A stretch of DNA of 64,000 bases, taken from an uncultured Clostridia bacterium. Lineage in GTDB: Bacteria > Bacillota > Clostridia > TANB77 > CAG-508. The stretch covers positions 10,026-74,025 of the forward strand of contig CAMIVO010000001.1 of assembly GCA_946401865.1 (NCBI GenBank). Direction: 5' to 3'. A program made the translations under genes and the position numbers. This document shows, piece after piece, positions 49,273 to 60,776 of the stretch; the first letter of the stretch is position 1; each line of letters opens with the position of its first letter. Below the pieces are notes generated by a model, which saw nothing but the letters and a program-made list of their open reading frames with translations, had not been told where the DNA came from and did not search any database.

Positions 49273-49908
49273 ATGGATGTAAATAATAACTTAAGAAACT
49301 ATATAGAACAAAATATTTTTCCACTATATGAGAAAAATTATATTGGTGATGGAATAGATAGAATTAAATATGTTATAAAACGAAGTGAAAATATAATTAA
49401 AGAAAATGATTTAAAAGTGAATGATGATATCTTATATACAGCTATAAGTTATCATGATATTAGAAAAAATAATGATGAAAAAAATCATGAAAAGATTAGT
49501 GGAGAGATAATGTTTAAAGATGAGTTTTTGGCAAGCTATTTTACATTAGAGCAAAGAAAAATTATTCAAGAGGCAATAGAGGACCAAAGAGCAAATGCGG
49601 AAAACGAGCCTAGAAATATATATGGAAAAATATTATCTTCTGCCTCTAGAAACTCATCTGTTGAACAATGTTTAAAAAGATCCTATATTTATGGTAAAAA
49701 GAAAAATCCAGACTTATCTGATGTAGAAATTTTTGAGGGTGCATATAAGGTGCTTTCTAATAAGTTCGGAGAAAACGGATATGCTAAATTCTATTTTAAA
49801 GACACCACATATGAAAATTTTCTAAAAGATATAAGGCAATTGCTTTCTGATAAAAATAAATTTATTGAAGCTCAAAGAGCATGTATTGCCAATCTAAATC
49901 TAATATGA
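49273..49908 (+). CDS. HD-domain phosphohydrolase
   Basis: 211 aa with the YHDIRK H..HD pattern. Confidence 0.65.
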   Translation: MDVNNNLRNYIEQNIFPLYEKNYIGDGIDRIKYVIKRSENIIKENDLKVNDDILYTAISYHDIRKNNDEKNHEKISGEIMFKDEFLASYFTLEQRKIIQEAIEDQRANAENEPRNIYGKILSSASRNSSVEQCLKRSYIYGKKKNPDLSDVEIFEGAYKVLSNKFGENGYAKFYFKDTTYENFLKDIRQLLSDKNKFIEAQRACIANLNLI

Positions 49909-49921
49909 GGGGCAACATAAA

Positions 49922-50593
49922 GTGGATGCTATTAATGCACAATTAAAAGAATATATCGAAAAAAGCATATTTCCAAAATATAATAAATATTATTCACATG
50001 GTATGATACATATTAATAGTGTTATTAATAATATGTTGATGCTTGCAAATTATTATAACTTAGACCAAAATATGGCATATGTAATAGCCAGTTATCATGA
50101 TATAGGTTTAAATGTAAATAGGGAAAATCACGAATATGAATCTGGTAAAATTTTAGAAAGTGAAATAGAATTAAAAAAATACTTTACACCTGAACAAATT
50201 GAAGTAATGAAACAAGCAGTTGAAGATCATAGAGGATCTAGAAAAATAAGACCAAGAAATATTTATGTTGAATGTGTTTCTGACTCTGACAGGGATTTCG
50301 ATATAAAAATTCATATAAAAAGACAGATTTCAACATCAATTAAGAATTATCCACAAAAAAAATCTTTTGATGAACATTTTAAAAATTGCTATGAGTATGC
50401 CTGCGAAAGAATTAATGATAATGGTAAATTTAATCTATGGACAAATAATCCTATTTTAGTTGAAAGAAGAGATAATTTTCAAAAGGATTTCTTAAATAAA
50501 GAATATGCTAAATTGCTTTACAAAGAAGAATGGGATAGAATCTCAGCAGATGGTACAAAAGAAAAAATAATAAATTTTTATGAAGATTATTAA
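49922..50593 (+). CDS. HD-domain phosphohydrolase (tandem paralogue)
   Basis: 223 aa with a GTG start; shows HINSV...YHDIGL...EDHRG. Confidence 0.65.
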   Translation: MDAINAQLKEYIEKSIFPKYNKYYSHGMIHINSVINNMLMLANYYNLDQNMAYVIASYHDIGLNVNRENHEYESGKILESEIELKKYFTPEQIEVMKQAVEDHRGSRKIRPRNIYVECVSDSDRDFDIKIHIKRQISTSIKNYPQKKSFDEHFKNCYEYACERINDNGKFNLWTNNPILVERRDNFQKDFLNKEYAKLLYKEEWDRISADGTKEKIINFYEDY

Positions 50594-50611
50594 AAAGCAA
50601 TTTAAAAAATC

Positions 50612-50800
50612 TTGACAAATACTGAAATATTAAGTACAATAAATAAAGATATTATGAGATAATTAAATATAAAGATAAAAATATGGAAACCAAGGGAGTA
50701 TTTTCTTTGATTTCCATATTTTTATTGTTATAAAAAAACTTTATAATACAAAATCAAAGATTCTTTCTGGTTTCAAATATATTAAAAGGAGGATAATAAA
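50612..50800 (+). promoter_or_regulatory. Promoter plus conserved structured leader L1 with an intrinsic terminator (candidate attenuator/riboswitch or sRNA)
   Basis: TTGACA 50612-50617, 17 nt, TACAAT 50635-50640. Terminator ATATGGAAACCAAGG...CTTTGATTTCCATAT plus T-run at 50681-50726, then a second hairpin before the RBS. Near-duplicate at 55883-56073. Confidence 0.55.
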
Positions 50801-51679
50801 ATGATTGATTTACATATACATACAACTTGTTCAGATGGACAATTAACTGTAAAGCAATTACTAAAAAAAGCAAACAGTGAAGGAATATCTGTAATTTCTT
50901 TTTGTGATCACAATGTTTTAGGTGCATATCAAGTATTAGATAATATGGATTTAAGTAAATACAGAACAAAAATTATAACAGGTATAGAATTCGATTTTGT
51001 ATTTAAACATAAAGACTTTCACATGTTGGGATATGATTTTGATTGGAAAATGATGAATAAAAGTAATTTAATAAATACCAAAAGTGACGAAGAAATTATT
51101 CAAGAGGAAAATAAAAAATTAACCTTTTTAAAAGAAGTTTGTAGAAAACAAGGAATTAAATTTGATGAAGATTTAATTATAAGTAGAAAAAATGATAAAT
51201 CAAGCACTGTTATGAAATATCATATGATGGAATTTAAAGAAAATGATAAGATTTTAGATGAAATGCTAGGTAAAAATAGAGAAAAAAGTTTTGCAAGAGG
51301 CTATGTACATAATCCTAATAGTCCATTCTTTATAGATGAAACAATTGGATTACCCACAGCAATTGATGTAGCAAATTTAATACATTCATGTGGTGGTAAG
51401 GTAGTTTTGGCACATCCTTTTGACTATAAGGATATAAATCACAAACAATATATTCAGGATATCTATAATTTAGGCATTTTAGATGGTATAGAATGTTTAC
51501 ATACAAGACATGGAATTGAACAAATTGAGTATATTAAGTGTTTTTGTCAAAAAAACAATTTATTGATAACAGGTGGAAGCGATTTTCATAGAGAACTAAA
51601 ACAAACCTTAGGATATGGTGCTAGTGGTACTATTCCTATAACTGAAGAATATTGCTTAAAAAATGTAGATAATTTTTAA
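50801..51679 (+). CDS. PHP-domain phosphoesterase
   Basis: 292 aa with MIDLHIHTTCSDG and CDHN motifs. Confidence 0.8.
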   Translation: MIDLHIHTTCSDGQLTVKQLLKKANSEGISVISFCDHNVLGAYQVLDNMDLSKYRTKIITGIEFDFVFKHKDFHMLGYDFDWKMMNKSNLINTKSDEEIIQEENKKLTFLKEVCRKQGIKFDEDLIISRKNDKSSTVMKYHMMEFKENDKILDEMLGKNREKSFARGYVHNPNSPFFIDETIGLPTAIDVANLIHSCGGKVVLAHPFDYKDINHKQYIQDIYNLGILDGIECLHTRHGIEQIEYIKCFCQKNNLLITGGSDFHRELKQTLGYGASGTIPITEEYCLKNVDNF

Positions 51680-51793
51680 ACAAAAAAAACTAAGATAAAT
51701 CAAATTATAAAATAAAATTGAAAACAAATTGCTTTAAATGTTGTTTTTTATGTATATATGTGATAAAATACATAAAAAAGGAGGCAGAAAAAA

Positions 51794-52120
51794 ATGAGTG
51801 ATGGTAAAAATAAACTAATAATAAAAAATTTAATTAGTTTTATTCTTTCATTTTTCCCTAGATTTAGTATGATATTATTTGCATTATGTCTAAAATCAGA
51901 AAATATTGATTTCAAAGATGCAATGGATAATGCTTTTGGGACAATAGTTTTTGGACCTTTTGCATTAATTATATTATGTATGAGTTTATTAATTGCTTTA
52001 CCAGCTTTTATAATGACGATAAAATATATGATAGAAATTATAAAAAGCAAGAAAAAAATAGTAATTCCGATAATAGAAATTTTGATTTATATATTAGAAA
52101 TTATTAGATTTATAAAATAA
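51794..52120 (+). CDS. Small membrane protein
   Basis: 108 aa with three predicted hydrophobic helices. Confidence 0.45.
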   Translation: MSDGKNKLIIKNLISFILSFFPRFSMILFALCLKSENIDFKDAMDNAFGTIVFGPFALIILCMSLLIALPAFIMTIKYMIEIIKSKKKIVIPIIEILIYILEIIRFIK

Positions 52121-52170
52121 TTATATATGAATTTAATCTTTATTCAAAAATAAAAAAAGGAGTTTTTTTA

Positions 52171-59866: not shown

Positions 59867-59891
59867 AAATTACCATGTTCTATAAAAATAC

Positions 59892-59953
59892 GGAATAGTA
59901 GTAAATTTGCAATTTAGGAAAATTAAATTTCTAGAATTGCAAATTTTTTATTT
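59892..59953 (+). terminator. Terminator module H copy 3
   Basis: GGAATAGTAG box, then AAATTTGCAATT...AATTGCAAATTT stem followed by a T-run. Confidence 0.65.
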
Positions 59954-60148
59954 AATAAAAATCATTCTTACGAAGTACAAGTAATAGATTTAGATTAATA
60001 AATAATAATTTATAAAATCTTATAAAATAAAAAAAAGATATAATAAAACTATAAAAATTACAGTTAATAAAATGCACTAAAAATTCCAAGAAAATAGAAG
60101 AAGAGAGTGGAAGCTCTAAGATTAAGATATCTAATAAATCGCTATACA

Positions 60149-60168
60149 ACATTGTACAAAATAAAAGT
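60149..60168 (+). repeat. Motif M copy (ACATTGTACAAAATAAAAGT)
   Basis: Identical 20-mer to 53546-53565; lies 42 nt upstream of the shared promoter module. Confidence 0.7.
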
Positions 60169-60209
60169 ATCCGTGCGTTCAAATTTATAAAAATAAGCAT
60201 AGTAGTTAG

Positions 60210-60238
60210 TTGTAATTATCAGTTTTTTGTTATATAAT
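60210..60238 (+). promoter_or_regulatory. SigmaA-type promoter (shared module with 53630-53658)
   Basis: TTGTAA 60210-60215, 17 nt, TATAAT 60233-60238. Confidence 0.55.
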
Positions 60239-60320
60239 AATTGAGAATTTGATTATAAAGATATGTAATATAAGTATCTTAATGAATTAAACAATATAGA
60301 AGAAAAATGGAGTTATTAAA

Positions 60321-60776
60321 ATGAGTATCAGCAAAAATAAAAAAGAGAATTTAATGAAAATAGTAATGCAAGAAGTTGAAAAAGCGATAGAAGAAGGAAA
60401 TTCGCCATTTGGTGCAATACTGATTGATGAAAATGGAAATATAATTGAAAAAGCACATAATACAGCTAAATCTATGTGTAATCCTGTATTACATGCTGAA
60501 ATAAACTTAATTACAAAAGCATGTAAAAAGTTAAATACTAGAGATCTTTCAAAATATTATATTATGTCAAACGCATGGAGTTGTAGCATGTGCATGTCAG
60601 CTTGTATTAAAGCTAAAATACAAAATTATATATATGGAGCACCCAGTGAATCAGACATGAATCCTAATATAACAATATTTGATGTTAAAGAAAAAGCAAA
60701 TAACAAATTAAATATTGAAACAGGAGTATTGCTTGATGAATGTCAATCACAAATTCAAAATGCAAGAAATCATTAA
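60321..60776 (+). CDS. CMP/dCMP-type zinc deaminase-fold protein (nucleoside/nucleobase deaminase)
   Basis: 151 aa with HAE...(S)CSMC zinc motifs. Confidence 0.75.
   Translation: MSISKNKKENLMKIVMQEVEKAIEEGNSPFGAILIDENGNIIEKAHNTAKSMCNPVLHAEINLITKACKKLNTRDLSKYYIMSNAWSCSMCMSACIKAKIQNYIYGAPSESDMNPNITIFDVKEKANNKLNIETGVLLDECQSQIQNARNH

Follow-up and report, generated by a model that had tools for sequence, protein, structure and literature searches.

Introduction

Integrative mobile elements exploiting Xer recombination (IMEX), such as CTX-phi, TLC-phi, VGJ-phi and the gonococcal genetic island (GGI), have no integrase of their own and keep one arm and the centre of their host's dif site. In TLC-phi attP and in difGGI, the XerC arm and the centre of dif are kept, while the XerD arm is divergent (PMC5357621). 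In XerS/difSL, the recombinase gene is located directly beside an atypical dif site, the two forming one module (PMC5357621), and a dif system has also been revealed through a mobile element mimicking the site (PMC9765430). Here we describe a 64,000-nt stretch of DNA from an uncultured Clostridia bacterium (GenBank assembly GCA_946401865.1, contig CAMIVO010000001.1, positions 10,026 to 74,025), which is referred to as the window. Its region from about 47.3 kb to beyond 64 kb is probably the left part of an array of cassettes that site-specific recombination has assembled at a 28-bp dif-like site, the full form of which is designated F, in the chromosome of an uncultured low-GC bacterium of the gut or rumen Clostridia type.

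The system has similarities to IMEX elements and to integrons, without being an integron, and it differs from each of the nearest known systems in defined ways. As in IMEX elements, the units have no own integrase and keep one arm and the centre of the site, integration would restore the full site and lead to tandem stacking, and filamentous phages are among the users. Unlike IMEX elements, most units are cassettes of 0.6-3 kb without replication or transfer genes and with a common chassis of promoter block, hairpin and purine-rich tract. Many such units can be present per array, arrays are found on both sides of the site, and the recombinase genes, which adjoin the site, have diverged from XerC/XerD. 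Sedentary chromosomal integrons likewise combine a recombinase and a primary site with a long array of small cassettes in one orientation, and their cassettes are also shared and reshuffled between genomes and carry similar cargo, including many unknowns. However, no IntI is found here, the core sites are of the double-strand type instead of folded attC sites, and the arrays are bipartite. Whereas integron cassettes are promoterless and read outward from Pc, the cassettes described here face the primary site and have a predicted promoter block. In Firmicutes, integrons are reported to be essentially absent.

Further systems share single properties with this locus. The pdif modules of Acinetobacter are likewise small groups of genes enclosed by Xer-type 11-6-11 sites, and Xer recombination is presumed to move them, but they have alternating inverted sites, reside on plasmids and use the housekeeping XerCD, whereas the sites described here are chromosomal direct repeats on one side of F, with a single terminal full site. 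As in XerS/difSL and XerL/dif, a recombinase gene adjoins an atypical dif-like site; in contrast to these, two tandem recombinases, a 109-aa protein and about 900 conserved non-coding nt to the site are found. The composite islands of staphylococcal cassette chromosome (SCC) elements at orfX of staphylococci also show tandem accretion, many units without a recombinase and a copy of the site at each junction, but SCC elements have serine recombinases (Ccr), are 10-60 kb long and belong to a different host group. Full-text literature searches, which included the sequence of the site, found no description of this system.

Results

A repeated motif of the window is one arm and the spacer of a dif-like site

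The window has a G+C content of about 25%, its GC skew is positive along the whole 64 kb, and nearly all of its genes are on the + strand. A motif designated M (ACATTGYACAAAATNAAAGT) occurs in six copies, all on the + strand and all inside 53546-62676 (53546..53565, 56713..56732, 58950..58969, 60149..60168, 61352..61371 and 62657..62676, referred to as half-sites 1 to 6). By chance 0.43 copies would be expected, six copies were reached in 0 of 100 shuffles, and a profile search of the whole 64 kb identified no further copy. Motif M corresponds to the left arm plus the spacer of a 28-bp 11-6-11 palindrome, ATTGCACAAAA-TCAAAG-TTTTGTGCAA; at half-site 1, the right arm (TTCCGTGCAT) is degenerate. 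The motif is always located 3' of the preceding gene, at 46-290 nt from the next one.

The site was searched in one genome per prokaryotic species, and the following figures apply among the matches listed. At least 120 stretches contained motif M. Almost without exception they come from gut metagenome-assembled genomes (MAGs; human, rabbit, mouse, chicken and ruminant hosts) labelled as uncultured low-GC 'Clostridia', 'Clostridium sp. CAG' or 'Bacilli'. Exactly one full palindrome was present in 86 of the 109 assemblies with a motif match and two in none, which, as the MAGs are incomplete, is a lower-bound test of the single-copy state. The consensus of F, obtained from 93 distinct full sites, is ATTGCACAAAA TcAAAG TTTTGtGCAA. 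Two kinds of degenerate sites accompany it, up to 11 of them in one assembly: in left-type sites (n = 92) the left arm and spacer are kept and the right arm is degenerate, while in about 31 right-type sites a degenerate left arm is followed by TAT-CAAAG-TTTTGTGCAA. The part common to both kinds is T-CAAAG-T, the region in which the crossover is expected.

F was terminal in all ten loci that also hold degenerate sites. Genes are on the + strand to its left and on the - strand to its right and thus converge on it, and the local GC skew changes from +0.22 on the left to -0.18/-0.20 on the right (8-kb pieces only; positive on the left in 15 of 16 loci, negative on the right in 16 of 16). To the right of F, in at least 9 of the 21 loci that lack the recombinase genes described below in its vicinity, the space is occupied by mirror-image cassettes on the - strand. 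With arrays on either side of F, the array is therefore two-sided and converges on the full site. The criteria used in dif prediction include a single occurrence per chromosome (PMC3025954). F is a palindromic 28-mer with the dif layout of two 11-bp inverted arms and a 6-bp centre, occurs at most once per genome among the matches listed and coincides with a local skew reversal. Recombinase genes next to an atypical dif are also known from XerS/difSL and XerL, which favours dif as well. We put the chance that F is the chromosomal dif at slightly below even, and above that of an attachment site borne by a mobile element.

The first-pass annotation had noted the repeated intergenic modules of the region and taken them for a common regulatory scaffold that provided most genes with their own promoter and terminator. 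The modules themselves are present as described and have no other occurrence in the window: apart from the six copies of motif M, these are the leaders L1 (50607..50794) and L2 (55876..56065), which are 84% identical across 191 nt, module H (55741..55860, 58705-58804 and 59885-59957), an A/T-rich hairpin (AAATTGCAAATT...), and block P (53616..53690 and 60196-60249), in which the inverted repeat GACTGATA..TATCAGTC overlies TTGTAA-17-TATAAT. Modules H and P recur in the cassettes and arrays of many other genomes. In each cassette, a degenerate right arm and a conserved promoter-like block precede one to four array-strand genes, which are followed by an A/T-rich hairpin, then by a purine-rich tract and finally by the left arm and spacer, ATTGCACAAAA-TNAAAG. 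Block P, module H and the purine-rich tract with motif M flank unrelated cargo in the arrays of many genomes and form the common chassis of mobile cassettes, in agreement with the cassette-like modularity noted earlier. The individual promoters and terminators were not recovered: sigma-70-like matches did not exceed the level of shuffles (146 compared to 128 +/- 11), no G+C-rich terminator was found at the places claimed, and a generic promoter/terminator scan does not discriminate in DNA of 25% G+C. The one argument that block P may be functional is its conservation across genomes.

A scaffold of locally duplicated promoters, operators and terminators (M, P, H, L1 and L2), with motif M bound by the helix-turn-helix (HTH) regulator encoded around 60895, would account for the good -35/-10 pair beneath the conserved inverted repeat of block P and for the presence of an HTH gene within the array. 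This is very unlikely, as motif M is the left arm and spacer of a palindrome located beside recombinase genes and marks the exact end of homology between common cassettes, as identical modules flank unrelated cargo in many genomes, and as the motif has a constant position 3' of the preceding gene and a variable distance to the next. The array genes are also not recent duplicates; the best nucleotide match between any two NUDIX genes is 70% over 64 nt. Of the earlier proposal of accretion by duplication or recombination, recombination is retained in spirit and local duplication is not.

Cassettes are reshuffled between genomes and phages use the same site

In the compared loci (given as L numbers), cassettes are 0.6-6.6 kb long with a median of about 1.4 kb, and their open reading frames (ORFs) amount to 29,373 aa on the array strand versus 3,845 aa on the opposite strand. 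Evidence for cassette shuffling was obtained for the deaminase-plus-HTH cassette of the window (60321..61284), which encodes a deaminase of the cytidine deaminase (CDA) fold (60321-60776) and a winged-HTH protein (60808-61284). The deaminase is present letter for letter in five metagenome contigs with other neighbours, in which motif M lies between all gene units. Copies of the whole cassette with 98-99% identity occur in three further cassette orders, and homology stops at the last base of motif M; with the same cassette in L001-L005 it ends exactly at half-site 5. L001 and L002 have three common cassettes of 92-95% identity in permuted order. The DNPH1/NDT-like gene of the window (57405-57773) is 98% identical at the DNA level to the first cassette after rho in L016, a MAG from water-deer rumen.

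Phages were found at the same site. In two of ten contigs with an identical recombinase, a left-type degenerate site and F enclose an inovirus-like prophage (Phage_CRI), and the 7.1-kb viral contig L139, with Zot-like and Rep genes, has a half-degenerate site and no recombinase among the five ORFs scanned. A second viral contig, L148/L151 (IMGVR_UViG_3300045988_170385, 40.7 kb), has a half-degenerate site at both ends and is either a circular phage genome with the site as attP or a prophage cut at its junctions.

These distributions also bear on the idea that a selfish intergenic repeat, of the repetitive extragenic palindrome (REP) or miniature inverted-repeat transposable element (MITE) type, makes up motif M and its flanks and is inserted in an ordinary accessory island with genes that are not mobile with it. 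AT-rich Firmicutes commonly have short, conserved repeats between genes. However, the copies are strictly uniform in orientation and confined to the array, they form no hairpin, the gene content between sites is permuted across genomes with boundaries at the sites, and phage attP sites or prophage junctions share the sequence, making this explanation highly improbable.

Tandem Xer-family recombinase genes beside the full site

To the right of F, about 900 nt free of ORFs are followed by a gene for a 109-aa protein and two tandem genes for Xer-family tyrosine recombinases, which read towards F. The recombinases comprise 328-330 aa and 340-363 aa, and the R..HxxR..H..Y residues are kept in both. 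With about 200 bits for XerC and XerD, they stay below the equivalog cut-offs of these models (335 and 330 bits). No close relative was found in sequenced plasmids or phages, and the best match is Clostridium XerC at 37-38% identity. The 109-aa protein has no family match and no PDB match. The N-terminal domain of the winged-HTH protein in the deaminase cassette (60808-61023) is about 51% identical to it (L125 797-1126, - strand), which suggests that the winged-HTH protein, the gene of which has a 155-nt deletion compared to other copies, is a cassette-encoded paralogue of a recombination accessory factor.

Several features of the DNA around F were noted. The ORF-free stretch (L008 5260-6090; about 56 loci, +30 to +900 after F) has a negative GC skew and a conserved block, ..ACAACAAACTATATG.CTAAATTATAAAAACGGCTTAAAATCGATTCTCGTGCGTCG.., plus a partial second copy, and gave no match in Rfam; the part ..TCTCGTGCGT.. 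is similar to degenerate right arms (TTTCGTGCGT) found in many cassettes. The stretch could represent accessory recombination sequences, an origin or an RNA. In L131 (~8241-8300, as fetched), an inverted copy of the typical recombinase-side flank (..TAAGAGATAGGAGCATAATATAAAACAGCC..) is present beyond the site and resembles what recombination between sites of opposite orientation would yield, i.e., an inversion. In L125, a PemK/MazF-like toxin gene and the pemK RNA motif RF02913 (36.5 bits) are located just past the recombinase pair (3392-3988 and 4286-4382).

Short cassettes of mostly one or two genes, in one orientation beside a tyrosine recombinase and a primary site, and a cargo of GNAT, NUDIX, toxin-antitoxin and aminoglycoside-modifying genes like that of sedentary chromosomal integrons, are what a classical integron, or a cluster of attC sites lacking an integrase (CALIN), would display. 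The recombinases, however, reach 107 bits with the integron-integrase model TIGR02249, the cut-off of which is 265 bits, and the six sites of the window, folded on both strands, gave DNA-fold z-scores of -0.76 to +1.37 against shuffles, i.e., no folding. In addition, the cassettes read towards the primary site, have their own promoter-like block and flank the site on both sides. An integron was rejected on the recombinase score, which provides no IntI, and on the non-folding sites, and its probability is minute.

The flank on the recombinase side deserves separate consideration. Ten contigs with an identical recombinase (L126-L135) share 99.2% identity as far as the 28-bp site; beyond it, they are 72-77% identical or unrelated. 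The near-identical block of at least 6 kb comprises a radical-SAM gene, a Spo0A_C-like gene, the two recombinase genes and the gene for the 109-aa protein, whereas the Rho proteins of the same contigs are only 74-81% identical. Either the recombinase module has recently spread by horizontal transfer, or the assemblies are chimeric at the site. The recombinase-side flank also bears PcfJ/PcfK, IS110 and PemK-type toxin genes. Together with the near-identical flank and the identity of about 37% to XerC, this indicates that the recombinase module may travel on a mobile element. A plain chromosomal-dif interpretation of F is weakened, because a recombinase flank of 99% identity is found amid Rho proteins of 74-81% identity.

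The same observations would be accounted for if the cassette mechanism were as proposed but the recombinases and the site belonged to an integrative mobile element, the array being satellite accretion at its attachment site, as in SCC composite islands or tandems of phages and integrative, conjugative elements (ICEs). The lineage-dependent left flank, with rho in most loci and a glycosyl/acyl-transferase gene here, and the position of the recombinases below the XerC/XerD equivalog cut-offs are in line with such an element. On the other hand, the full site, which has the 11-6-11 architecture of dif, never occurred more than once per assembly among the matches listed and lies at the reversal of GC skew and gene orientation. 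No second site was found within 8.7-12 kb on the recombinase side, and the site is used, in the manner of dif, by filamentous phages for which no integrase gene was found. We consider this explanation possible but rather doubtful.

Gene content of the window and cargo of the array

Genes in the upstream part of the window are chromosomal, with ftsZ, ispG (GcpE), a class-V aminotransferase gene (nifS-like) and an M23 peptidase gene identified by Pfam. Synteny with the nearest MAG (UBA9784, L062) stops at ~47321, directly past an acyltransferase gene, and the variable region therefore extends from about 47321 to beyond 64000. The repeats are specific to this region, and the array is thus not a set of scattered housekeeping orthologues in conserved synteny among unspecific repeats. 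The first gene past the end of synteny, on the + strand as are all genes of the array, encodes an AMP-binding, acyl-CoA-ligase-like protein by Pfam (47342..49250; A-run frameshift near 49015) and probably marks where the variable region starts on the left. The window contains no tRNA or tmRNA gene, and Rfam, used at gathering thresholds for the whole window and at permissive E-values for 49-64 kb, identified no family for L1/L2 or the repeats. A 1116-aa protein encoded at 14729-18079, outside the array, has as its sole Pfam match an HD domain near the C-terminus.

The first part of the array begins with two paralogous HD-domain genes (49273..50593), of which the second (49922-50593) matches Pfam HD and the first (49273-49908) is divergent, has no match to a profile hidden Markov model (HMM) and is recognized by 33% identity to its neighbour. 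Leader L1, with TTGACA-17-TACAAT and an A/T-rich hairpin followed by a T-run, precedes a PHP phosphoesterase gene (50801..51679), a small hydrophobic ORF of 108 aa without a family (51794..52120), a frameshifted NUDIX-like gene (52171..52898) and a NUDIX hydrolase gene (52891..53469). Both leaders contain a decayed left-type site, that of L1 being ATAATACAAAA-TCAAAG at ~50746-50762 (weak profile match 50748-50762), and L1 is possibly an eroded cassette junction. The hairpins of L1 and L2 overlap an ORF of 15-16 codons, METKGVFSLISIFLL (50683-50733 and 55953-56000), the copies of which differ only synonymously; it may represent a leader peptide or attenuator, or occur by chance.

Half-site 1 and block P are followed by genes for a ThyA-fold protein (53728), a YdeN-type serine hydrolase (54395) and an HD_3/YfbR-like phosphohydrolase (55076; together 53728..55714), then by module H, leader L2 and a NUDIX hydrolase gene (56074..56505). 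Between half-sites 2 and 3, a NUDIX gene (56840-57331), the DNPH1/NDT-like gene, a membrane ORF (57904) and a weakly DUF3592-like ORF (58349) were identified (56840..58681). A metallophosphoesterase-like gene (58990..59866), split by a T-run frameshift, lies before half-site 4 and the deaminase-plus-HTH cassette before half-site 5. The remainder consists of a single-gene cassette for a 283-aa protein without a family (61528..62379) and, past half-site 6, the start of a large cassette gene (62955..64000) that continues beyond the end of the window; this cassette exceeds 2.7 kb in L152.

The gene families assigned earlier were largely confirmed, at a lower count: 12-13 genes are nucleotide-related instead of at least 15, and the others encode the serine hydrolase, membrane proteins, the HTH protein and unknowns. 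Pfam matches above the gathering score were obtained for HD (49922), PHP (50801), NUDIX (52891, 56074 and 56777/56840), Ser_hydrolase/YdeN (54395), HD_3 (55076) and dCMP_cyt_deam_1 (60321), so that both the serine hydrolase and the CDA-fold deaminase stand as originally annotated and three of the five proposed NUDIX or NUDIX-like proteins are recovered. The protein encoded at 52171-52898 has no HMM match. It shares 82% identity with the N-terminal half of a 443-aa cassette protein that is intact in L123 and bears a C-terminal HAD domain there; the frameshift in the gene of the window lies in an A-run at codon 4. For the pair annotated as YfbR-like and ThyA-fold, the product of 53728 is Thymidylat_synt at a weak 32 bits (cut-off 24), a short archaeal-type model fitting best, and that of 55076 has a weak YfbR-like match beside HD_3. 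Less firm are the nucleoside 2-deoxyribosyltransferase-like protein, with a match of the 57405 product to DNPH1/Rcl of that superfamily at E = 4e-4 only, and the metallophosphoesterase, which is in two pieces (58990 and 59255) and has a sub-threshold Metallophos_2 match. The NUDIX, HD, PHP, CDA, ThyA and Ser_hydrolase genes of the window belong to these families by sequence, and the corresponding activities are predicted. An exact-protein look-up gave a match for the deaminase alone; the ThyA-like, AMP-ligase and 283-aa proteins had no record.

Homopolymer frameshifts in A- or T-runs break three genes in or beside the array (~49015, ~52185 and ~59100). Compared over about 1.2 kb to relatives of 98-99% identity, the deaminase cassette shows no indel; for the DNPH1-like cassette, the comparison extends over 534 nt and shows one. 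The frameshifts may be assembly errors, decay of distal cassettes or slippage.

Other arrays have a similar cargo. Nucleotide- and phosphate-related genes there encode PHP, HD/dGTPase-like, metallophosphoesterase, nucleotide pyrophosphatase, inorganic pyrophosphatase, MazG-like, NUDIX and NT5C proteins and the same deaminase; in addition, GNAT, HAD, ANT(6)/APH aminoglycoside-modifying enzymes, AbiEii, ToxN, Fic, peptidases, leucine-rich repeat (LRR) and prepilin-like proteins were found. By a rough tally, nucleotide and phosphate hydrolases make up approximately a quarter to a third of the cassette pool, and the array of the window, with more than half, is among the richest. Large cargo proteins with a type-IV-prepilin-like N-terminus (KGITLIALVITIIVLLILAGISISML) recur in L013, L052, L074 and other arrays. 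PADLOC, run on ten array proteins, returned only generic NUDIX matches to the candidate PDC-S07 and no specific defence system, and a defence island receives no support from this analysis.

Discussion

The cassette-array interpretation implies a mechanism in which the full 28-bp site would lie past the window, at the 3' end of the array. A circular cassette with a half-degenerate site would recombine with the full site, with the crossover in the common T-CAAAG-T core being catalysed by the tandem Xer-family pair, and would leave a crippled hybrid site on the far side while the full site is restored. As the full site would be regenerated at each insertion, new units would stack beside F in one orientation. 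The logic would be that of IMEX elements such as TLC-phi and GGI.

Several points weigh against this interpretation. Neither the full site nor a recombinase gene was found in the window, the cassettes of which (47-64 kb) bear cargo genes only, and the link to both is provided by related contigs. A 99%-identical rumen-metagenome contig of 2.7 kb (L152) begins at half-site 6 and stops short of the next site, and the full site and recombinases belonging to the window are therefore not reached. In the related loci with enough flank, the recombinase trio lies within 4.5 kb of F in 15 of 36, i.e., not in most. Within the array, the genes at 49273-53469 precede the first clear site, and the profile search identified only decayed candidates there. 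Since PHP and NUDIX-like genes are cargo elsewhere (a PHP gene also in L040) and L1 and L2 contain decayed sites, we read the first 6 kb as older, eroded cassettes. The left homology boundaries of common cassettes are located 10-35 nt inside the cassette, in block P and not in the spacer, and homologous exchange between common modules therefore also contributes. No excised circle or empty site was seen in the MAGs and metagenome contigs, which make up the comparative data throughout and in which chimerism is possible at repeats; all support is likewise at the level of sequence.

Taking the cassette array as the preferred interpretation, the nucleotide hydrolases of the window would be cargo from a common pool rich in small phosphohydrolases, and interchangeable accessory functions rather than a pathway. 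They may serve salvage, sanitation of the nucleotide pool in a reduced genome, or phage conflict. In its widest form, which we put forward tentatively, the system would consist of a dif-like terminus site with a dedicated tandem Xer pair and constitute a two-sided gene-capture platform, an analogue of the integron that arose independently. It would be characterized by double-strand core sites, by self-expressing cassettes co-oriented with replication, by a site common to filamentous phages without an integrase, and by a pool rich in nucleotide phosphohydrolases and base-modifying enzymes.

The 28-bp site is defined and can be tested directly, together with the two recombinases and the small accessory protein. 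The system was found in no fewer than 109 species-level genomes, which derive from the guts of humans, rabbits, mice, chickens and ruminants. If the interpretation is correct, an Xer-type cassette platform would represent a second, independent solution to modular gene capture, and a route of gene flow, including that of aminoglycoside-modifying enzymes and toxin-antitoxin genes, in abundant uncultured gut bacteria. The question would then shift to why nucleotide hydrolases are favoured as cargo, for which salvage in reduced genomes, sanitising of the nucleotide pool and phage conflict may each be considered.

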